A DNA stretch of 64,000 bases from Promethearchaeia archaeon (lineage in GTDB: Archaea > Asgardarchaeota > Lokiarchaeia > Sigyniarchaeales > SOKP01). The notes under the pieces were generated by a model. That model worked only from the letters and a program-made list of their open reading frames with translations. It made no database searches and had not been told where the DNA came from. The DNA lies in NCBI GenBank assembly GCA_046483985.1, contig JAWOCD010000005.1, positions 30,862 to 94,861 of the forward strand. The letters run 5' to 3'. The position numbers and the translations under genes are program-made. Of the stretch, positions 32,551-56,953 are shown in pieces; positions within the stretch are counted from its first letter, which is position 1, and every line of letters begins with the position of its first letter.

Positions 32551-34770
32551 TTAGACGAACAGTGACTTTTCTTCATCGGAACGATGAGAAGAGACTCGAC
32601 GTTGTTTCAATTTATCTTGATAATCTTCGTACCATTGAACAATATCATCGTTAATACTGGCGCTAACGAATTCTCTTGCTCGCTCAAAATGATTCATATT
32701 TACCGTTCGTGCTCTAATATTATCTCGTAATGCGATCATCGCTGCTTCCCGGCAGAATGTTTCAATATCTGCTCCTGAAAATCCTTCGGTCATTTTTATT
32801 ACTTTATCTACCTCTACATCTGTGGAGAGTGGCATTGGTTCAGCAAATATTTCAAAAATCTCTTCTCTTTCTTCCTTATTGGGAGCAGGCACCAATAATA
32901 TTCGATCAATCCGACCGGGACGAATCAGAGCTGGATCAAGGATATCTGGCCGGTTAGTTGCGGCGATAACTACAATATCCTTATTGACTTCTAATCCATC
33001 TAATTCTGTGAGAAATTGAGATAATACTTTTTCGGTCACACCCGAGTCTGAAGTATGCCTTCCACGGCTTGGTGCAAGAGAGTCAAATTCGTCAAAGAAA
33101 ATAATACATGGTGCTGCCATTTTTGCTTTTCTAAATACTTCCCGAATTGCCTTTTCACTTTCACCTACCCATTTCGAGAGGAGCTCTGGTCCTTTGATTG
33201 AGATGAAATTAGCTTTACTTTCAGTTGCAACCGCGCGTGCTAAGAGTGTCTTGCCGCACCCTGGTGGACCATATAGAAGGATCCCTTTAGGTGGGGTAAT
33301 ACCCATGCGAGAAAATACTTTCGTATTTGAAATAGGCCAATTTACCGATTCAATTAATTTTTGTTTTAAATCGTCTAGTCCTCCTACTTCATCCCACGAG
33401 ACATTCGGAATTTCGACAAATACCTCCCGAATTCCTGAGGGGAGAACTTCCTTTAAAGCTTCCTGAAAGTCTTCCCTCGAAACTTGAATTTGTTCCAATA
33501 ATTCTGGATCTATTATCTCGGATTCCAAATTAATTTCCGGAAGATACCTACGTAATGCTGACATCGCCGCTTCACGAGATACTGCCGAAATATCTGCCCC
33601 TACAAAACCATGTGTTATTTTTGCATACTCTTTAAGGGAGATTTCCTTATCCAAGGGCATATTTCTGGTATGGATCTGAAAAATCTCTAATCTCCCTTTT
33701 TCGTCTGGTACTTTTATTTCAATCTCCCGATCAAATCTCCCAGGGCGGCGTAAAGCAGGATCTAAACTATTAGGACGGTTTGTGGCCCCGATGACTATAA
33801 CTCTTCCTCTACTATGTAATCCGTCCATTAACGCTAATAATTGTGCGACCACGCGACGTTCCACTTCGCCAGTTACATTTTCCCTTTTTGGAGCGATTGC
33901 ATCAATCTCATCAATAAAAATTATCGAAGGGCTCTTTTCCTCGGCCTCGACAAAGATATTTCTTAATTTCTTTTCAGATTCTCCATAAAATTTGCTCATA
34001 ACTTCTGGGCCATTAATTGAAATAAAATGAGCTTCGCTTTCATTGGCTACAGCTTTTGCTAACAAGGTCTTTCCACATCCTGGGGGCCCTCTTAAAAGTA
34101 CACCTTTCGGTGGGTCGATTCCAAGTCTCTTAAATAATGAAGGATGACGGAGAGGTAATTCAACCATTTCCCGAACACGCTGTATTTCTTTATCTAGTCC
34201 ACCAACATCTTCATAGGTGATATAAGTACCCTCATCGATACCTTCCGAGATTCTTTCACTGATATGAAGGTTAGTCTCACTTGTTATAATACAGACGCCT
34301 TTTGGTCTTAAATTCGTTACTTTAAAGGTTAGCTCTCTACTAATCCCAATTGAAATAATAATATAATCGTCCATAGTTATGGGTAATTTGTTTAATCTTC
34401 TCTTGACAAATGATTCAAATTTAGAATTAGTTTTGATAGTAATATTAGAAGCCGAAAGTACTACTGTATCAGCTTCCATTTTTTTAACCTTTTTTACTTC
34501 CACGGTATCATCTATACTAGTCCCAGTATTTTTTCTTAATCGAGAATCAATGCGTGCTATTTGAAGACCGTTATCTTGTGGGTAACTTGGCCATGCAATT
34601 CCAGCGCTTTTTTTTTTGCCTTCTATTGCAATTATGTCGCCTGTTTCAATATTTAATTTTTCCATTGTTTCTTGATCTATTCGGATGATATTCCGTCCAA
34701 CGTCACGCTTTTTCGCTTTTTGAATTCTTAAGGTAACGCTTCTATTGCTATCATCATTATCTGGCGTCAT
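32551..34770 (-). CDS. cdc48: AAA+ ATPase Cdc48/VCP/VAT
   Basis: It has an N-domain ([33 protein letters not shown]) and two AAA modules, each with GPPGCGKT. The Walker B motifs are FIDEID and FFDEFD. Confidence 0.95.
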
Positions 34771-34863: not shown

Positions 34864-35913
34864 TCATTTAAAGAACGTATCTAACGAGGTTTGCTTGGAA
34901 TTTCTTTTCAACTTTTTAAGTCGCTCTAATGCGTTTTTTACCCGTTGAGTTGAAAAATTATGTTGTTCAATCAGCAATTCTTCAACTTTTTCATAATTTA
35001 CACTTTTCCATTTTGGCTTTGGATAATCCTTATTCACATTCGGGTTTAGAAATATATCCTTCACTTGCTCTATGATACTTGAATCGATTTGGATTTTTTT
35101 TTTTCCAATTGTAATTTCTTGTTCCATCAGATTTTCAATTGATCCGTATTCTTTAATGAGATCATAGGCTTTATGTTGACCAATCCCTTTAATACCTTGA
35201 AAAAAATCAGTTCCGATTAAAATCCCCATATCAACTAATTGCTCTTGGGAAATGTCCAAATGCTCTAAAAGTTTTGTTAGATTAATATATTCAATGTCTA
35301 AAGTAATTGTAGTGTTCTTAACCTTTTTACTCCGCTTCACAGCAAAATTACGGATTAGACGGTCTCCACCAAATAAGAGAGTGTCATAATCTTGAGATGC
35401 TATCCCCCATGCATCCCCTTGTTGTACCATATACGCTGATTGTGCTTCCCCTTCCGAATTCGCTTGAACCACGGGAACTCCAAGATGATCAATCAGTTTT
35501 TTTCCTTCCTCGATCATATTCGGGGTCAGTTTTGAGGTCTGTTGGGCATATTTTCGGGCTTCTTCGTAATTTTCCGCCTCTTGGGCTTCAATCATTTTTT
35601 CTTTTGCTTCCTTTTTAATATCCTTTCTTTCTTGGATTGTGTCCAATTTTAATCTGGAGGGTTCTCCGTCAAACACATAAATAGGTTTAATCTCATTTTC
35701 CAGAAAATTAATAGTACGATAAAAGAGCCCTGAAAGATGAGAAGTTATATTTCCTTCATAATCTTTTAAAGGAGTTCCATCTCTTTGGCGGATAATTGCC
35801 AAAAACTGATAAATGGTATTAAAAGCATCAATTGCTATTTTCTTATTAAAAAGGTTTTCAAACGTAATGGCTTTTTTAACGTCTTTGAGGAGTTCATTTA
35901 TTTTTGTTCCCAT
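34864..35913 (-). CDS. fen: Flap endonuclease 1
   Basis: It has MGTKINELL, AIDAFNTIYQFL, YVFDGEP and H3TH GIKGIG. ATG 35913 is preceded by GGTGAT with 4 nt spacing, so it is preferred over the GTG at 35925. Confidence 0.9.
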   Translation of the reverse strand: MGTKINELLKDVKKAITFENLFNKKIAIDAFNTIYQFLAIIRQRDGTPLKDYEGNITSHLSGLFYRTINFLENEIKPIYVFDGEPSRLKLDTIQERKDIKKEAKEKMIEAQEAENYEEARKYAQQTSKLTPNMIEEGKKLIDHLGVPVVQANSEGEAQSAYMVQQGDAWGIASQDYDTLLFGGDRLIRNFAVKRSKKVKNTTITLDIEYINLTKLLEHLDISQEQLVDMGILIGTDFFQGIKGIGQHKAYDLIKEYGSIENLMEQEITIGKKKIQIDSSIIEQVKDIFLNPNVNKDYPKPKWKSVNYEKVEELLIEQHNFSTQRVKNALERLKKLKRNSKQTSLDTFFK

Positions 35914-35963
35914 GATGATCACCACTAAATTTACAACTTAATAATAAGGAATTATCGTTATAA

Positions 35964-36524
35964 TTATTTTTTCATTCTGCGTTTTAACTTTTCCCCACAG
36001 AATTCACAAGGTTCCTCCAAGTGCTCAGCATCATAGACTTTTTTACAAAAGGGACAATAAACCTCCCATTTAATTTTTTTTGTTATCCCTCTTTTACCTA
36101 AAGGAGAATAAGGAATGGCGAGTTCTTGAGAGACATTTTCCATTGAATAATCGTTTGATAACAGGATTATCTTCTCCTTTCCGTGTAACTTACTTAAATC
36201 GAATGCTAAAGCAATAAGTTCCTTATCAGCCCTACTTAATGCTTTCATATCCCCTGTGTGCTTTGAAATCTTTTCGACATGTTGAAGGGACTCCTGGGAT
36301 GGAATTTGAACAATTAACTTTTTGCCTTCAATAGCGGCGTGAATCCGGTTTAAGATATTTCGATTTTTATGATGATAACGTTTTACTTTAATTTCTTCGA
36401 TAATAGAAGGAGTTGTATACAACTTCCCTTTGAATAAATTAAAAGAAACCCCTTGTAAAAAGATGTTTGTATCTAAAATGAAGATTGATTTGTTCATGAA
36501 TTTTCCGCTCATAAAAATCCTCAA
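35964..36524 (-). CDS. nob1: Nob1-like PIN-domain endonuclease with C-terminal zinc ribbon
   Basis: It has PIN FILDTNIFL...SNDYS and the zinc ribbon CPFCKKVY...CEFCGEKL. Confidence 0.7.
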   Translation of the reverse strand: MRIFMSGKFMNKSIFILDTNIFLQGVSFNLFKGKLYTTPSIIEEIKVKRYHHKNRNILNRIHAAIEGKKLIVQIPSQESLQHVEKISKHTGDMKALSRADKELIALAFDLSKLHGKEKIILLSNDYSMENVSQELAIPYSPLGKRGITKKIKWEVYCPFCKKVYDAEHLEEPCEFCGEKLKRRMKK

Positions 36525-36566: not shown

Positions 36567-37481
36567 CTATTCTTCTGGACTATCGTCCAAAGGAACGTTT
36601 ACGGTCCCGATTATTTTCTTTCTCAACCTTGTGAAATAACTTGACCGAGAACCATTGTCCGTAAATCGTATGAACTTTACTGATTTTTCAGATCCCCTTA
36701 TAAGTATACGGGAATTAGGAGCAACATCTTTAATTACTTCTTGTCCATCAATTACGACTTTTCCATTTAATCGGGGTCTTAATAATTTGATTTCTATTTC
36801 TGAATCGAGAGGCAAGATGATTGGTTTTAAACCCGATTGGGCATAACTATTTAAGGGTGTAATTTGAATAACGTCTAGATCTGGAGATACTATCGCCCCT
36901 CCCGCGCTTAAATTATATGCTGTTGAGCCTATAGCCGTCGAGAGGATAATCCCATCTAAATAACTTCTATTCAAGAAGATTCCGTTAACTTTAACCGAAA
37001 TCTGTAAAACCTTGGAGTGTTTTGAAGAAACAATTAGGACCTCATTTAAAGCATTATTAAGTTTAATTTTTTTTCCTTCCTTATTAAATAAATAAGGGGT
37101 AATTTGAGAACATTTTTCAATCACATAATCTTCATTGAGTAATTTTTCAATATCATCAAAAATTCTATGATCGGTTGATTCATCGAGAAACCCAATTGAG
37201 CCCACGTTAACCCCTAAAATTGGGGGGGGATTTTTATGGGTTAAGCCTTGAGCGACCCTCAATATGCTTCCATCCCCTCCAAAACTGATAAGAAATTTGA
37301 TTTCCGAGGAATTCATTTGTGCTAAATCCATTCCATTATGGGGAAAGATTTTCGGGGCAATTCTTGTTTCTAGATAAACAACTTCCCCCTTTTTAATTAA
37401 ATATTCAAATATTTTTTTTGCAAGCTTTAACGCTTCTTCGGAGTCCATTCTGGATGCGATTGCAATTGCCTTTTTTGCCAT
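36567..37481 (-). CDS. nadK: NAD kinase
   Basis: It has FGGDGSILR and the NE/TAYNLSAGG motifs, in 304 aa. Confidence 0.85.
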   Translation of the reverse strand: MAKKAIAIASRMDSEEALKLAKKIFEYLIKKGEVVYLETRIAPKIFPHNGMDLAQMNSSEIKFLISFGGDGSILRVAQGLTHKNPPPILGVNVGSIGFLDESTDHRIFDDIEKLLNEDYVIEKCSQITPYLFNKEGKKIKLNNALNEVLIVSSKHSKVLQISVKVNGIFLNRSYLDGIILSTAIGSTAYNLSAGGAIVSPDLDVIQITPLNSYAQSGLKPIILPLDSEIEIKLLRPRLNGKVVIDGQEVIKDVAPNSRILIRGSEKSVKFIRFTDNGSRSSYFTRLRKKIIGTVNVPLDDSPEE

Positions 37482-37571: not shown

Positions 37572-38000
37572 TTAATCAATAATAATACGATGAATTAATG
37601 TTCTACCTGCAACTTTCCAATACTCTATCCGTGCCGAAGCCATTTCGTCTGGATTTTCACGTAACTCTTCAACTTTCTTTTTCAATTTTTCCTCACGGGG
37701 CCATTTTATATCCAATGATTCATATGACTCTAAATCCATAATGTTAATTACATTATCCTCAATATAATTTATTTGAGCCGAACTTTTAATTATTTCGGGG
37801 ACCATCACAGTTGAACCGCTGGGATACGTCTCACTTCGCTTGTTCTCATCAAACATCCCCTCGCAAATAACTCTTACTTTGGCATGCCCGTGTTTCCCAG
37901 ATTTACTTCGCTCAGTGCTCTTAATGATACATGGTTCATCGTCGACCATTAAATAATTCCCCGATTTTAATTTTTGTATCTCCTTTCTAAAATAGGACAT
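37572..38000 (-). CDS. eif5a: Translation initiation factor 5A (aIF5A)
   Basis: It has the hypusine-loop SKSGKHGHAKV, in 142 aa. Confidence 0.9.
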   Translation of the reverse strand: MSYFRKEIQKLKSGNYLMVDDEPCIIKSTERSKSGKHGHAKVRVICEGMFDENKRSETYPSGSTVMVPEIIKSSAQINYIEDNVINIMDLESYESLDIKWPREEKLKKKVEELRENPDEMASARIEYWKVAGRTLIHRIIID

Positions 38001-44046: not shown

Positions 44047-46137
44047 TTGATTAATGGAGTGGTCGTTCCCGCACTAACCTTTTTTAATAATGAATATCGA
44101 TTAATTAATGAGTTAAATTCACTTTTATACAGACATATTGTTTTAAATGGGGCAAATGGGGTATTTTTATTCGGAACCACCGGTGAAGGGATGATGTTTA
44201 CCGATAAAATTGAACAAAAAATAAATTATATAAACTTAACAATCGAGAGTGAACAAAAAGTTCCCGTTCTTCTTGGAGTTTGGGGAAACGATGAAGATAA
44301 GATAATTGATGAGATTAAAGAACTAGCAATTCAATTTCCTGCATTAAATTTCGTCATTATTCCTCCAATGAATGAAAAAAAATCTATTGCAGATTTAAAA
44401 TCTTATTTTGAAACCATTTTAGGTTCATTAGATATAAAAAATCCGATCTATCTTTATAATAATCCGGATCTTTTTGCTGGAAACAATATAAATCAAAATA
44501 TTCTTAGGTGGCTTTTGACTTTTTCGAATTTAGCGGGTATAATAGACTCCTCGCGAAAAATCAAGACGTATAAAGGTTGTATAGAATTTTTAAGTGAGGA
44601 ATTTAGTGTTTACTGTGGACGGGAGAGTAATTTTTCCAATTTTCTACAACTTATCCCACAAGAAAAACGAAAATATGCTGGATTAGCCCCGAGTATTGGA
44701 AATCTATCAAATATATCAAAAAAGTTATATCAAGCGGCATTAGAAAAAGAGCCGTTAAAACTAGTACAGTTGCAAGAAGAACTTAATGATTTTCGAGATA
44801 AAATCTATGATATTAAAGTAAGGAAAGGTAAACAACAAAGGGGGCTAAAATATGCATTTTACAATCTTTATGAAGACATTATTAGTACACCTGAACAAAA
44901 AGCTTTAACAGTTGCACCCAGAAACGAGCGTATTTTAGAAGATACGGTAAAAGACAGAATCACCGCTACCGTTCAATTTTTATTCAATCAATCTTATATT
45001 GATCGATTTTATAAAATCGGGAATCATTTATATGATTTCACGACTCTTGCTTCAAAGATTTCCAAAATCGATAAATTACAAGAACTCGGTGAACTAAAAA
45101 AAATAAAGGGTCCTTATGGAGGGAGAATAAACAAAATTTATCGAATAAAATTGGGTATCAATTCATATGTGCTCAGAGCACGAACTTCTCAAGCGTTTCG
45201 TTATGAAGGCTTAATAAAAGAAAAAGTATTATTCCCCTTTTTGGATAGCTCTTTACATAAAGAATTACCAGATCTTGGAAATCGGGTTGATAAGATCTGT
45301 GGTGAGAAAAAAGGCTCTTATACATTTGACGAAGACTCTCCATCTGTTATACCTGTTTACGATTTAATATATTATGACGAAACAAAGGAATTATTCCCGC
45401 ATATATATTCCATTCATGAATATCTGCCGGGAAAGACATTATACTCTTTGCTGGAAGATTATAAAATTCTTAAAGAAAGCAGGCTTTTCAAGAATTTTTT
45501 GGATCTCTTTGAAAACATAGGTAAAATTCTTGGAAAGATTCACGAGATCTCTTTCAACGGATTTTATTACAAAATTGATGAAATTGGACATCAAGCTAAA
45601 CAATTAGAGTGGGGAGAACTATTTCAAAAGCAATTAGAAGAGGAACTTTCCCAATTAAATGAAGAGAAATTAGAAATCATCCCGGACATCAAGCAATATT
45701 TCGAAGAACATTCTTCTTTAATTAAAGAGAATGAAGAAGCAGTATTGATTCATAATGATTTTCAAGGACAAAATATAATCGTTAAAGAAGAAGAATCAAC
45801 TGGAGCATTTCGTTTAAATGGACTTATTGATTTTGATAATTGGAGAGTGGGTGTGCGAGCTCAAGATTTTGTTAAGATAAATTTTTGGACATTAAATCCG
45901 CTAAATGACCCTCAATTGAAAGAGGCCTTTTATAAGGGATATCAAAACCGATCTGGTATTTTAATAAGTGAAACTTTTGAGAAAAAAATTGAGATCTATT
46001 CTCTGCTTTGGTTCTTAAAAGTATATAATTTTGAAATGGATAAAATGCAGAAAGGGAAGCAAGGTAAAATTATAGATAAACGATTTCCTCCCCCAGAACA
46101 ATACATAAATGAAATAAAAAAAATATTGACCCCTTAA
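44047..46137 (+). CDS. Fusion protein: DapA/DHDPS-like TIM-barrel domain plus APH/ChoK-type phosphotransferase domain
   Basis: The N-terminal part has VVPALTFF...FGTTGEG...YLYNNP. The C-terminal part has YVLRA, EYLPGKTLY, LIHNDFQGQNIIV (HxDxxxxN) and GLIDFDNW. The start is TTG. Confidence 0.6.
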   Translation: MINGVVVPALTFFNNEYRLINELNSLLYRHIVLNGANGVFLFGTTGEGMMFTDKIEQKINYINLTIESEQKVPVLLGVWGNDEDKIIDEIKELAIQFPALNFVIIPPMNEKKSIADLKSYFETILGSLDIKNPIYLYNNPDLFAGNNINQNILRWLLTFSNLAGIIDSSRKIKTYKGCIEFLSEEFSVYCGRESNFSNFLQLIPQEKRKYAGLAPSIGNLSNISKKLYQAALEKEPLKLVQLQEELNDFRDKIYDIKVRKGKQQRGLKYAFYNLYEDIISTPEQKALTVAPRNERILEDTVKDRITATVQFLFNQSYIDRFYKIGNHLYDFTTLASKISKIDKLQELGELKKIKGPYGGRINKIYRIKLGINSYVLRARTSQAFRYEGLIKEKVLFPFLDSSLHKELPDLGNRVDKICGEKKGSYTFDEDSPSVIPVYDLIYYDETKELFPHIYSIHEYLPGKTLYSLLEDYKILKESRLFKNFLDLFENIGKILGKIHEISFNGFYYKIDEIGHQAKQLEWGELFQKQLEEELSQLNEEKLEIIPDIKQYFEEHSSLIKENEEAVLIHNDFQGQNIIVKEEESTGAFRLNGLIDFDNWRVGVRAQDFVKINFWTLNPLNDPQLKEAFYKGYQNRSGILISETFEKKIEIYSLLWFLKVYNFEMDKMQKGKQGKIIDKRFPPPEQYINEIKKILTP

Positions 46138-52704: not shown

Positions 52705-53100
52705 ATGTCTCCGATAATATCACTTCAAGTCTCCGAAGATCTTCACGAGCGGTTCGAAAAGGTAAGGACTTTAGTGGGGTTTGATTCTAAAAGTGAGGCG
52801 TTACGTGATGCCATCGTAAATTTTATTAAGATCCACGAAGAATTTGAAAATATCGAGGGATATAAGATAATGAATATTAACCTTGTGTATCCCTTTAAAG
52901 AAATTGTGATAGATAGAGTTTCTGAAATCTATACGGAATTTAATAATGTTATCCGAAATGTCTCAGATTGGCGAATCGCTGAAAAAAAAATTGAGATTGT
53001 CCTTGCCGTGGGCGAATTCGGATTAATTCGCGATCTTTATGATAAACTGGCAAAAATTAAACATGTGGTCGTGTCAATTCACGAGATCATTCTGGATTAG
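52705..53100 (+). CDS. NikR-like ribbon-helix-helix regulator lacking the canonical nickel ligands
   Basis: The RHH is ISLQVSEDLHERFEKV...SKSEALRDAIVNFI, followed by an ACT-like C-terminal domain. Positions aligned to E. coli NikR H76/H87/H89/C95 are non-ligand residues. Confidence 0.5.
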   Translation: MSPIISLQVSEDLHERFEKVRTLVGFDSKSEALRDAIVNFIKIHEEFENIEGYKIMNINLVYPFKEIVIDRVSEIYTEFNNVIRNVSDWRIAEKKIEIVLAVGEFGLIRDLYDKLAKIKHVVVSIHEIILD

Positions 53101-53118: not shown

Positions 53119-54525
53119 TTAATAAAAGTGAAGAGATAGATCCACCTCTTCGGACGGAAACTGAGTTAATCTACTTGAACTTATTACATCTGGTTCTGCT
53201 TCCAAATAAGAGGCCAGATTCTCGAAATTAATCCCCCCCGATACCTCAATTAAGACTTTATTACGCAAACCGTGCTCATTAAGTAGATTAATGGCATTTT
53301 TTACCTCTTCTGGATCCATATTATCCAGCATAATTATATCTGCTCCAATTTTTGCAGCTGTTAATAAATTCTCTACTTTCTCAATTTCAATTTCGATTTT
53401 TTTTGTAAAACTCGCTTTTTCTTTAACAGCTCTTAAAAGCACTTCCACATCACCATTATAATAACGTAAATGTGTATCTTTTAAAAGAATCATATCATCT
53501 AAGGAAAACCGATGGGGATCACCACCCCCGATTTCAATTGCTGCTTTTTCGAAGATGCGAAGTCCAGGGAGAGTTTTTCGTGTTCCTGCAATTTTTGTTT
53601 TTTTCTTCAATTTTTGAGTAAGATTTACATATTTTCTCGTAGTTGACGAGATAGCACTCATATGCGTAAGAAGATTTAATCCAACACGTTCTATTAAAAG
53701 AATATCATGAGCATTTCCGGTTAAGTCAACGATATGATCTCCTTTTTCTATAAAATCACCGTCCCGGTTTTGAAGATCTGATTCTACATTACACATATCG
53801 CATAGAACATTAAAAAATGTTAAACCAGAGATATAACCTTTACTTTTTGCGATAATTTTTGCTTTCACCCTTTCCTCTTCCGGAATAAATGCGGAGCTTA
53901 CATCCTTAAATTGGCAATCTTCTTTCAAATATTCTCTAAGTTTTTCTTTAATCAAGATGATATTATAGTTTTTATCAACAGATTCCTTTACTTCTTTTGG
54001 GAGATTTTCAATTATATGGAGTTTGGTTTCTGGAGTAATTAAACAAACACCCTTCGGTTCTAGGTTCGTCACTTTAAATTTCTGTTTTCTACCTTTCCCC
54101 CTCGAAATAATGAGATTATCATCCAAGGTTATTGGAGTATTCTGGGAATTCTTTTTAATGAGGGATTTAACTTGGGAATTACGTTTTATATCGAAATTTA
54201 AAGCAGTAAGACTAACAGATTTGGCATCTTTTGCTTTAGCCTTTCTAATTCTAACAATGTCTCCTTTTTTAGTTTTCGTATTTTTTCTAAGACGGGAATC
54301 AATCCGAGCAATTTGTAGCCCCTTATCGTCTGGATAATTTGGCCAAACTATTCCCGCACTTTTCTTTTTCCCTTTAATTACAACGATGTCTCCTGTTTCC
54401 AGATTTAAGTTTTTCATTATTTTTTCATCTATTCGAATGATATTTCGACCCTCATCTCGATCTTTAGCGCTTTGAACTTCTAAGATATAAATTTTTTCAT
54501 TATGGTTATTATTGTTTTTCTTCAT
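53119..54525 (-). CDS. nadC: Fusion: Cdc48/VAT N-domain (double-psi barrel plus beta-clam) joined to nicotinate-nucleotide pyrophosphorylase (quinolinate phosphoribosyltransferase)
   Basis: Residues about 12-175 read [58 protein letters not shown]...FKVTNLEPKGVCLITPETKLHI. Residues about 190-468 carry the NadC motifs LLIERVGLNLL, AGTRKTLPGLR, GGGDPHRFSLDDMILLKDTH, IMLDNM and EVSGGI. Confidence 0.8.
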   Translation of the reverse strand: MKKNNNNHNEKIYILEVQSAKDRDEGRNIIRIDEKIMKNLNLETGDIVVIKGKKKSAGIVWPNYPDDKGLQIARIDSRLRKNTKTKKGDIVRIRKAKAKDAKSVSLTALNFDIKRNSQVKSLIKKNSQNTPITLDDNLIISRGKGRKQKFKVTNLEPKGVCLITPETKLHIIENLPKEVKESVDKNYNIILIKEKLREYLKEDCQFKDVSSAFIPEEERVKAKIIAKSKGYISGLTFFNVLCDMCNVESDLQNRDGDFIEKGDHIVDLTGNAHDILLIERVGLNLLTHMSAISSTTRKYVNLTQKLKKKTKIAGTRKTLPGLRIFEKAAIEIGGGDPHRFSLDDMILLKDTHLRYYNGDVEVLLRAVKEKASFTKKIEIEIEKVENLLTAAKIGADIIMLDNMDPEEVKNAINLLNEHGLRNKVLIEVSGGINFENLASYLEAEPDVISSSRLTQFPSEEVDLSLHFY

Positions 54526-54667
54526 TATCTCTTTTCTCTTTCCATTCTCTTTGAATATTGTTCTTAAATTAAAAAAAAGACATTACTGTATAATTATTTA
54601 TTCTAATCCTTTAAACAATTTATATAGTCCAATTGAATTTAATATTTATCTCCCCTTATTTTTAATT

Positions 54668-55312
54668 ATGGTTGTTCTTAAGGATTTATTTATTGATGTT
54701 AACGGCATTCAATTAGAAGCCGAATATCTTCATTCCACCACTGATAATGAATTTGCAGTTATTATTTGTCATCCTCATCCGCAATACGGGGGAAGCATGC
54801 ACAACAATGTGGTTTCAGCCGTTTTTTCTCGGTTAAAGATGGAAAATATCAATTGTCTTCGTTTTAATTTTAGGGGTGTCGGAAACTCTTCTGGATCTCC
54901 TTCTGACGGAGTAGGAGAATTGGAGGATGTAAAAGCATGTGTCGAGTACTTAGTTGGGGAAAAACATTATGAGAAAATATTAATATGCGGCTACTCTTAT
55001 GGCGCTGCGATTGGTTGTTCTGCAGTTAATTATAGTAAACATATTGTTGGTTTTGTAGCAATCTCTTTTCCATGGGATTTTATGGATGAAAATTTCAAGA
55101 AATTATCCCAAACTGGGAAACCGAAATTTTTTATTCAAGGAGATGAAGACTCTATAGCTAAATATAATAGATTTCAAGAACATTATGACGATTATCAAGA
55201 ACCGAAGGAATATACTATAATCAAGGGTGCAAACCACTTTTACAGAAGTTATGAACACCAAGTTGCTGAGGAAGTACACAAATTTATTAAAAAAAATTAT
55301 TCCCTTGATTAA
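54668..55312 (+). CDS. Alpha/beta hydrolase (COG2945-like)
   Basis: It has CHPHPQYGGSMHNNVV, nucleophile elbow GYSYGA and a C-terminal GANHF. ATG 54668 is chosen because the longer ORF from 54512 runs through the divergent promoter. Confidence 0.75.
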   Translation: MVVLKDLFIDVNGIQLEAEYLHSTTDNEFAVIICHPHPQYGGSMHNNVVSAVFSRLKMENINCLRFNFRGVGNSSGSPSDGVGELEDVKACVEYLVGEKHYEKILICGYSYGAAIGCSAVNYSKHIVGFVAISFPWDFMDENFKKLSQTGKPKFFIQGDEDSIAKYNRFQEHYDDYQEPKEYTIIKGANHFYRSYEHQVAEEVHKFIKKNYSLD

Positions 55313-56557: not shown

Positions 56558-56953
56558 TTAGATTTCTGCCAACTTTTTTAGTTCTGGCTCGGCATTTTCT
56601 TGGGCCCAATCAAGGAGTTGATCATAATATTTCTCTACGTCCTCCTCTGGCGGAAGGTCCGCTAAGATAGCAAGTATGAACTGCGTATTTTCATTAATTA
56701 TAATATTACGGCAAATGATGAAATCCTCTTTATATTTAATCTTCATGGATTGAAAGGCTGATAAGTCAATCTCCTCTGCAGCTTTATATGCTGATTCACT
56801 TAGCAGTGATCCCATAGCAGCTACTACCTTTTCATCTACCTCCTCTGCTTTTTGGGATGCTAAAACTAAGCCCGCCTCCGTTGAGAAAAGCGAGGCCCTG
56901 AAATCACCATTTTCCATCAATCCTTTTAATACTCTCTCCAATCGACTAACCAC
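56558..56953 (-). CDS. Roadblock/LC7 (MglB-like) domain protein
   Basis: It has LERVLKGLMENGDFRASLFSTEAGLVLAS...FIICRNII...FILAILAD with an extra C-terminal helix. The start is GTG. Confidence 0.6.
   Translation of the reverse strand: MVSRLERVLKGLMENGDFRASLFSTEAGLVLASQKAEEVDEKVVAAMGSLLSESAYKAAEEIDLSAFQSMKIKYKEDFIICRNIIINENTQFILAILADLPPEEDVEKYYDQLLDWAQENAEPELKKLAEI

Follow-up and report, generated by a model that had tools for sequence, protein, structure and literature searches.

Quinolinate phosphoribosyltransferase (NadC or QPRT) converts quinolinate and phosphoribosyl pyrophosphate (PRPP) to nicotinate mononucleotide (NaMN), CO2 and pyrophosphate (PPi), and is an obligate head-to-tail dimer. 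In the human and yeast enzymes, a nine-residue N-terminal helix, α1, stabilises a hexamer; without this helix the enzyme forms dimers that are less stable and bind quinolinate less tightly, so that this end of the protein sets the balance between dimer and hexamer, the stability and the cooperativity of substrate binding (PMC4726147). A 64,000-nucleotide stretch of DNA from a Promethearchaeia archaeon (assembly GCA_046483985.1, contig JAWOCD010000005.1, positions 30,862 to 94,861; hereafter the window) encodes a NadC with a different N-terminal addition: one gene (53119..54525, minus strand) joins an N-module of the Cdc48/VAT type, through a short tether, to NadC. The NadC half resembles the plain Asgard enzyme (TIGR00078; PDB 1o4u, 5ayx) in its fold, its motifs, the histidine, arginine and lysine residues that bind quinolinate, and its chromosomal slot, but the fusion differs from it by a 188-residue N-terminal extension and by the loss of NadC's own start codon. 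The extension shares with the N-domains of Cdc48, VAT and p97 (VAT-N, 1cz4; p97-N, 3qq7) the two-subdomain fold, the signature motifs and the N-D1 linker; in contrast to these, it is followed by a metabolic enzyme instead of D1 and D2, evolves at about eight times the rate, and no longer shows, in one lineage or more, about two thirds of the positions that are invariant in Cdc48.

A reading of this DNA from its letters and open reading frames (the sequence-only reading) had described one uninterrupted 468-codon open reading frame (ORF) that combines two modules, and the present analysis bears this out; the ORF runs unbroken from its ATG through 468 codons to the stop, and all four Pfam domains lie past their cut-offs. 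CDC48_N (residues 15-97, 83.6 bits, cut-off 35.1) and CDC48_2 (residues 122-171, 27.7 bits, cut-off 22.4) stand in the expected order, both past the gathering score, and are followed by QRPTase_N (residues 211-290, 62.8 bits, cut-off 27) and QRPTase_C (residues 292-465, 165.7 bits, cut-off 23.1). On the minus strand, the protein divides into the Nn subdomain, a double-psi β-barrel (residues 15-97; 54235..54483; CDC48_N), the Nc subdomain, a β-clam (residues 98-175; 54001..54234; CDC48_2), the tether and junction, in which a remnant of the N-D1 linker meets the first nadC codons in the alignment (residues 176-188; 53962..54000), and a complete NadC (residues 189-468; 53122..53961; QRPTase_N/QRPTase_C, TIGR00078). 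When the N-module was modelled alone, from a clean alignment of N-module sequences only, the model reached a predicted local distance difference test score (pLDDT) of 90.8 and a predicted template-modelling score (pTM) of 0.82, and Foldseek matched it to p97/Cdc48 N-domains (E ~1e-13, TM ~0.8). The structural check on the N-terminal part, for which the sequence-only reading had called, and the Pfam hits thus agree with the assignment of residues ~12-175 to the Cdc48/VAT N-domain; pLDDT was 96-98 in Nn and 79-96 in Nc. A sequence search of the PDB found both halves, the Thermotoga maritima quinolinate phosphoribosyltransferase (QAPRTase, 1o4u; E 1e-47) and VAT-N (1cz4; E 7e-14). Pfam and NCBIfam detected no AAA module in the fusion ORF, and nadA, nadB and aspartate dehydrogenase genes were found nowhere within the 64-kb window, as had been stated before for the AAA module and for adjacent genes of NAD synthesis. 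Identity as a CDC48-family AAA+ ATPase was ruled out; the corresponding profile, TIGR01243, scored 93 bits against a cut-off of 802.65 and matched at profile positions 4-171 only. The identical protein of a Promethearchaeia metagenome-assembled genome (MAG) in NCBI (P0001, the fusion protein of the window's own contig of 116,654 bp) is named solely as a carboxylating nicotinate-nucleotide diphosphorylase.

The NadC half is probably a working quinolinate phosphoribosyltransferase, as judged from its conserved residues and modelled fold. It scored 282.6 bits against the NCBIfam nadC equivalog TIGR00078 (cut-off 198.4), whereas ModD (TIGR01334, 100.3 vs. a cut-off of 178.85) and nicotinate phosphoribosyltransferase (NF006415, 19.7 vs. 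a cut-off of 243) were both ruled out as identities. Every NadC hallmark that the sequence-only reading had quoted for a complete enzyme is present: GTRKT at residues 314-318, GGGDPHRF at 333-340, LLKDTH at 347-352, MLDNM at 399-403 and SGGI at 429-432. In an alignment to the natively numbered structure 5ayx, residues R138, K139, H160, R161 and K171 of human QPRT correspond to R316, K317, H338, R339 and K349 of the fusion; further conserved NadC positions are E279-R280, E378-x-E380, L400-D401-N402 and S429-G-G. The R138/K139 pair and the ER, E-x-E, LDN and SGG positions presumably have the roles that they have in the family at large. For H160, R161 and K171, binding of quinolinate and nicotinate has been described in the human enzyme (PMC4726147). 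The AlphaFold2 model shows a type II phosphoribosyltransferase fold with pLDDT >90 in this half (TM 0.92 and root-mean-square deviation 1.8 Å to human QPRT 4kwv in Foldseek). Plain 284-aa NadC proteins of Asgard archaea are 63-66% identical to residues 189-468, and among the three fusion orthologues introduced below the NadC half shows 73-77% amino acid identity and dN/dS (the ratio of nonsynonymous to synonymous divergence) of 0.07-0.10. The fusion is presumably the housekeeping NadC of the cell.

The combination of NadC with a Cdc48 N-domain is real, monophyletic and very rare, and is confined to a tiny clade. A ranked protein search returned three fused clusters, P0001 from the window, P0002 (464 aa, 64% identity) and P0003 (465 aa, 65% identity); the other matches listed, about 117, were all plain Asgard NadC proteins of ~277-302 aa, mostly 284. 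P0002 and P0003 come from eight further contigs of two further lineages, found in NCBI MAGs, ENA assemblies and Logan assemblies, so that the fusion with an identical junction is present in nine contigs from three sister Promethearchaeia lineages whose orthologues are 64-65% identical. The gene order at the fusion loci is constant: a divergent α/β-hydrolase gene, the fusion, a convergent gene for a 131-aa NikR-like protein, AP_endonuc_2, a class II aldolase and DinB. The closest unfused relatives have a nadC of 284-288 aa in the same slot, and no gene for an N-domain lies in its vicinity. When one genome per species was scanned, none of the 80 best loci, almost all of them from Promethearchaeota or other Asgard archaea, had the extension; the matches in these loci started at query residues 179-200, except in one contig-truncated locus where the match started at residue 251. 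A word-index protein search with the N-module alone gave a single match, a truncated Cdc48 (P0121), and was replaced by an exhaustive HMMER search, which yielded 1,464 relatives and no other NadC fusion among the best 150 representatives. Among 241 million metagenome records of the JGI, a junction-specific DNA pattern had no matches; a looser pattern, which had been checked beforehand to pick exactly the nine known fusion loci, found no further fusion in the same records and matched two unrelated GC-rich ORFs. In the searchable literature, QPRT or NadC is nowhere linked with a Cdc48 N-domain, co-mentions being incidental, and a 2020 eLife paper on conflict systems does not mention Cdc48. The architecture is apparently undescribed, which upholds the suggestion of the sequence-only reading that it is neither common nor previously reported.

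The N-module was copied from a gene 19 kb away from the fusion, inside the window; the sequence-only reading had noticed neither this donor nor the confinement of the fusion to a tiny clade. The donor is the resident Cdc48/VAT AAA+ ATPase (32551..34770, minus strand; 739 aa; CDC48_N, CDC48_2, two AAA domains and AAA_lid_3), whose N-domain is encoded at ~34216-34770 on the minus strand. The N-module of the fusion is 54% identical to this N-domain over 187 aa in tblastn (E 1e-60), and 57-58% identical in alignments. Across the three fusions, the N-modules are 51-59% identical to the resident Cdc48 N-domain and 49-51% identical to one another, and nothing known is closer to any of the three than the Cdc48 N-domain. 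A neighbour-joining tree of N-domains placed the long fusion branches unreliably and was set aside in favour of pairwise identities and a comparison between two genomes. The copied segment comprises the whole N-domain and the N-D1 linker, and ends just before YEDVGG, the start of D1; the linker is still recognisable in the fusions, where LPKEVKES or LPEGVDEP aligns with ISEGIDEG of Cdc48. On the other side of the join, unfused NadC proteins begin with M[S/N]YN where all three fusions read KNYN, so that the NadC part begins at most one or two codons away from where the ancestral gene started.

The synteny, the shared junction and the identity to the paralogue show that a single ancestral event copied the 5′ part of the resident cdc48/VAT gene, in frame, to the front of nadC. 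In the ancestor of this small Promethearchaeia clade, the cdc48 N-domain with its N-D1 linker was placed onto the start of the resident nadC, and NadC's own start codon was lost in the same event. A merger of two neighbouring genes was rejected, as the unfused relatives have no N-domain gene beside nadC, and an independently translated NadC was rejected as well, since two of the three orthologues (those of the window and P0002) have no ATG near the join. The upstream region of the fusion shows no significant similarity to the upstream regions of cdc48 or of the ancestral nadC, all of which are AT-rich DNA, and the cdc48 promoter may or may not have been carried over with the copy. In the window, this upstream region is the divergent intergenic stretch between the fusion and the α/β-hydrolase gene (54526..54667, presumed promoter region); its far end depends on the likely ATG of the hydrolase at 54668, a start taken from homologues of 211-213 aa.

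After the fusion, the two halves have evolved differently. Among the three orthologues the N-module is 48-52% identical at the amino acid level, with dN/dS of 0.24-0.32, and the Nc subdomain, with 44-49% identity between orthologues, is more diverged than Nn. The genuine Cdc48 N-domain and the fused copy can be compared between the window and the genome GCA_053584965.1, which carries P0002 and, at a syntenic FEN1-Cdc48 locus, the Cdc48 protein P0271. Between these genomes, the genuine N-domain is 93% identical (dN 0.045, dN/dS 0.04) and the fused N-module 52% identical (dN 0.356, dN/dS 0.32); five nearby genes, four of them flanking the fusion and the fifth being FEN1 beside Cdc48, show 74-94% identity, dN of 0.03-0.16 and dN/dS of 0.02-0.09, and the dN/dS values are rough as dS is saturated (1.1-1.7). 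The length of the module has stayed constant to within one internal residue in the three lineages at dS >1.

The positions at which the fused copies have changed can be read against the conservation of the genuine domain, in which 106 of 167 columns reach 90% conservation or more among 121 Asgard Cdc48 proteins from Loki-, Thor-, Hod-, Hermod- and Odinarchaeota. This conservation of the Cdc48 N-domain implies dense functional constraint, such as that from partners or from contacts with D1. Taken as a proxy for the ancestral interaction surfaces, the 106 positions divide into 37 that all three fusion orthologues keep, 36 that two keep, 15 that one keeps and 18 that are lost from all. The clearest fixed change specific to the fusions, as it appears in the alignment, is at residue 156 (54049-54063, minus strand), where an arginine that is 98% conserved in Asgard Cdc48 (m-R-P-k-g) is replaced by glutamate in all three (L/I-E-P). 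The residues kept in all three orthologues include K-R-D-x-G-R, TGD, R-I-D-S and N-T, and invariance is concentrated in the double-psi-barrel motifs. Charged or polar and hydrophobic residues at the Cdc48-invariant positions are retained about equally (66% vs. 59% identity), a proxy that cannot separate constraint on the fold from constraint on function. The fused copy has lost most of the constraint that is specific to Cdc48; it is still foldable, constant in length, and under moderate purifying selection.

In the full-length AlphaFold2 model (mean pLDDT 92, both halves mostly >90, pTM 0.65), which was computed from a mixed alignment with N-module-only rows partly smeared into NadC columns, the 11 tether residues 175-185 have pLDDT <50. 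The low pTM and the low-confidence tether indicate that the modelled fusion protein consists of two rigid domains on a flexible tether, without confident packing between them. The reading that we favour, and that we regard as probable on balance, is that of a genuine lineage-specific fusion in which the N-module, a unit of ~20 kDa that would fold independently on its short flexible tether, serves as an accessory appendage of NadC. One option is that the module would act as a generic handle for binding proteins or peptides, with a partner that is new and specific to the lineage; another is that it would modulate the stability of NadC and its state as a dimer or higher oligomer. The second option, akin to the oligomerisation or regulatory role that the sequence-only reading had raised as an alternative, arises because the module sits at the N-terminal end that governs quaternary state in hexameric QPRTs; Asgard NadC lacks helix α1, and the N-module is joined at that very end. 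Like helix α1 of the eukaryotic enzymes, the N-module is a lineage-specific addition at the extreme N-terminus of a QPRT, although the one is a nine-residue helix and the other a folded 20-kDa domain on a flexible tether; by this analogy of position, the module may affect the quaternary state of NadC.

Several points weigh against this accessory role. In the monomer model, the N-module is not docked onto NadC; the dN/dS values carry the saturation noted above, and a ratio of ~0.3 could reflect selection merely against a misfolded extension of an essential enzyme; the charged signature residues are partly kept, and some residual binding of the Cdc48 type may persist. In addition, a second, plain nadC may exist elsewhere in the genome, of which the window covers 64 kb.

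A serious rival, though we hold it to be the less likely reading, is that the N-module is a near-neutral passenger; a chance in-frame duplication would have replaced the start of NadC, and the module, without any function of its own, would have remained foldable as a bad extension harms an essential enzyme. With its own start codon gone, NadC depends on that of the module and, in this reading, on the module's upstream region, so that the reading frame of the module has to be kept intact regardless of function, and the missing ATG near the junction in the window and in P0002 accords with a passenger, as do the flexible tether with no predicted docking and the absence of the fusion outside its tiny clade everywhere else searched. 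The module is also the fastest-evolving coding sequence nearby (dN 0.36 vs. 0.03-0.16), and its divergence is star-like, each copy being closer to the Cdc48 N-domain than to its own orthologues. A dN/dS of ~0.3 is nevertheless well under 1, charged and polar conserved positions are kept as well as hydrophobic ones, and the model is still a confident, complete N-domain fold (pLDDT >90); moreover, a useless extension of 185 residues should have been shortened by in-frame deletions, and the length has been preserved over dS >1.

The lead idea of the sequence-only reading, that the N-module tethers NadC to the adaptors or clients of Cdc48 and thereby couples NAD synthesis to protein quality control, or that it serves as a decoy, has fared less well and is improbable. 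It draws on the direct derivation of the module, linker included, from the resident Cdc48 N-domain, on the intact fold and double-psi-barrel signature motifs, and on the prospect that a NadC oligomer, by comparison with QPRT dimers and hexamers, would display several N-domains at once. The extreme conservation of the Asgard Cdc48 N-domain speaks against it, since the fused copy keeps 35% of the invariant positions in all three orthologues, reverses the charge at the 98%-conserved arginine, and outpaces the true N-domain eightfold in the same genomes; three orthologues that diverge from each other are also ill-suited to a shared, conserved partner. We know of no N-domain adaptor that is established for archaeal Cdc48/VAT. 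It is unlikely, judging by these substitutions, that the fused module can still bind into the conserved network of Cdc48 interactions, and the wider proposal that it gives NadC a new interaction linking NAD synthesis to the proteostasis machinery is quite improbable; in one version, the NadC oligomer would bind Cdc48 clients, ubiquitin-like-modified proteins or proteasome-associated factors, and either have its NAD output tuned by the proteotoxic state or act as an ATP-independent decoy or holdase in competition with Cdc48. An artefact, in which chimeric assembly or a sequencing frameshift joined two unrelated genes, would be conceivable in a window that is part of a MAG, but its probability is close to nil: the same join in nine independent contigs from different projects and assemblers excludes a chimeric junction, about which the sequence-only reading had been cautious, at the level of independent assemblies, the orthologues are merely 64-65% identical within a conserved gene order, and GC content is level across the join (0.33 in the N-module, 0.34 in NadC).

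The NadC fusion is one instance of a portable Cdc48-N module. Many metagenomic proteins (P0122-P0270) have Cdc48-N modules and no AAA domain; the modules apparently stand alone in some (160-220 aa), and in others are arranged in tandem (P0122, P0133, P0137, P0149 and P0207) or fused to other domains, among them Ras/Roc GTPase, LRR, TPR, TIR, FHA, KAP NTPase and FMN_dh. Examples of such AAA-less proteins are P0130, P0136, P0155, P0178, P0198, P0216 and P0244. These partners are mostly of signalling or conflict type, whereas the partner in the NadC fusion is a core biosynthetic enzyme, and the FMN_dh case (P0178) alone is comparable. It is conceivable, though improbable, that the AAA-less Cdc48-N fusions represent an unrecognised family of portable polypeptide sensors, with NadC as the metabolic example. 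Among the Cdc48 relatives, P0273 (1007 aa) and P0291 (993 aa) score as highly as the normal 740-aa Cdc48 but are longer and match further Pfam models; possible explanations are an extended variant, a variant with three AAA domains, or gene calls that were run together.

The window as a whole represents ordinary archaeal housekeeping chromosome, with genes for proteasome α, SBDS, exosome subunits, prefoldin, an ECF transporter, KEOPS/Sua5, POR, PFK, HerA, FEN1, aIF5A and SRP54, and with purine genes. The only other NAD-related gene in it encodes NAD kinase (36567-37481, minus strand), ~16 kb from the fusion, within a same-strand string of aIF5A (37572-38000), NAD kinase, a PIN nuclease (35964-36524), FEN1 (34864-35925) and Cdc48 (32551-34770); the PIN-FEN1-Cdc48 part of this string is conserved in sister MAGs (L093, L095). 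That NAD kinase stands near the donor of the N-module, and not near nadC, is probably coincidence. Next to the fusion, a gene on the plus strand (52705-53100) encodes a NikR-like ribbon-helix-helix regulator of 130-131 aa (PDB 2bj1, E 9e-6; NF002169, 56 bits, under the cut-off of 111). It is convergent with nadC in all Asgard loci examined, whether these have the fusion or the plain gene (L001, 2035-2430; L005, 11419-11814; L009, 6852-7244; L010, 6864-7256; L011, 6862-7254), is 94% identical between the window and GCA_053584965 with dN/dS of 0.02, and possibly acts as a conserved regulatory partner to nadC. A small protein with resemblance to Roadblock/LC7 (56558-56953, minus strand; Pfam E 6e-4, under the cut-off) is encoded three genes away from the fusion; its gene also occurs in the loci of unfused relatives, for example as a 137-aa gene in L009. 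Elsewhere in the window, a 696-aa ORF that starts with TTG (44047-46137, plus strand) has an N-terminal half like DHDPS/DapA, matching no more than profile positions 2-197 of 289, and, at residues 435-632, a phosphotransferase domain of the APH type; either it is a further unusual fusion, or the mechanical ORF call has run two genes together.

The donor and the evolutionary history of the NadC fusion are unusually clear, and the added domain is relaxing. Whatever the role of the module, the fusion does not change the understanding of NAD synthesis or of Cdc48 function, and its phylogenetic reach is very small. If the module is a passenger, the fusion is a clean and datable case of domain accretion, locked in by the lost start codon of the recipient. 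If the module is functional, the fusion would be a rare natural instance in which a Cdc48/p97 recognition domain, separated from its ATPase, works on an enzyme of core metabolism, and it could show that the quaternary state of an archaeal QPRT is tuned by an N-terminal addition, as by helix α1 in eukaryotes. With the donor gene and three diverged copies at hand, this small clade offers a compact comparison system for the questions of what the Asgard Cdc48 N-domain binds, and how a captured domain is repurposed or decays after fusion.

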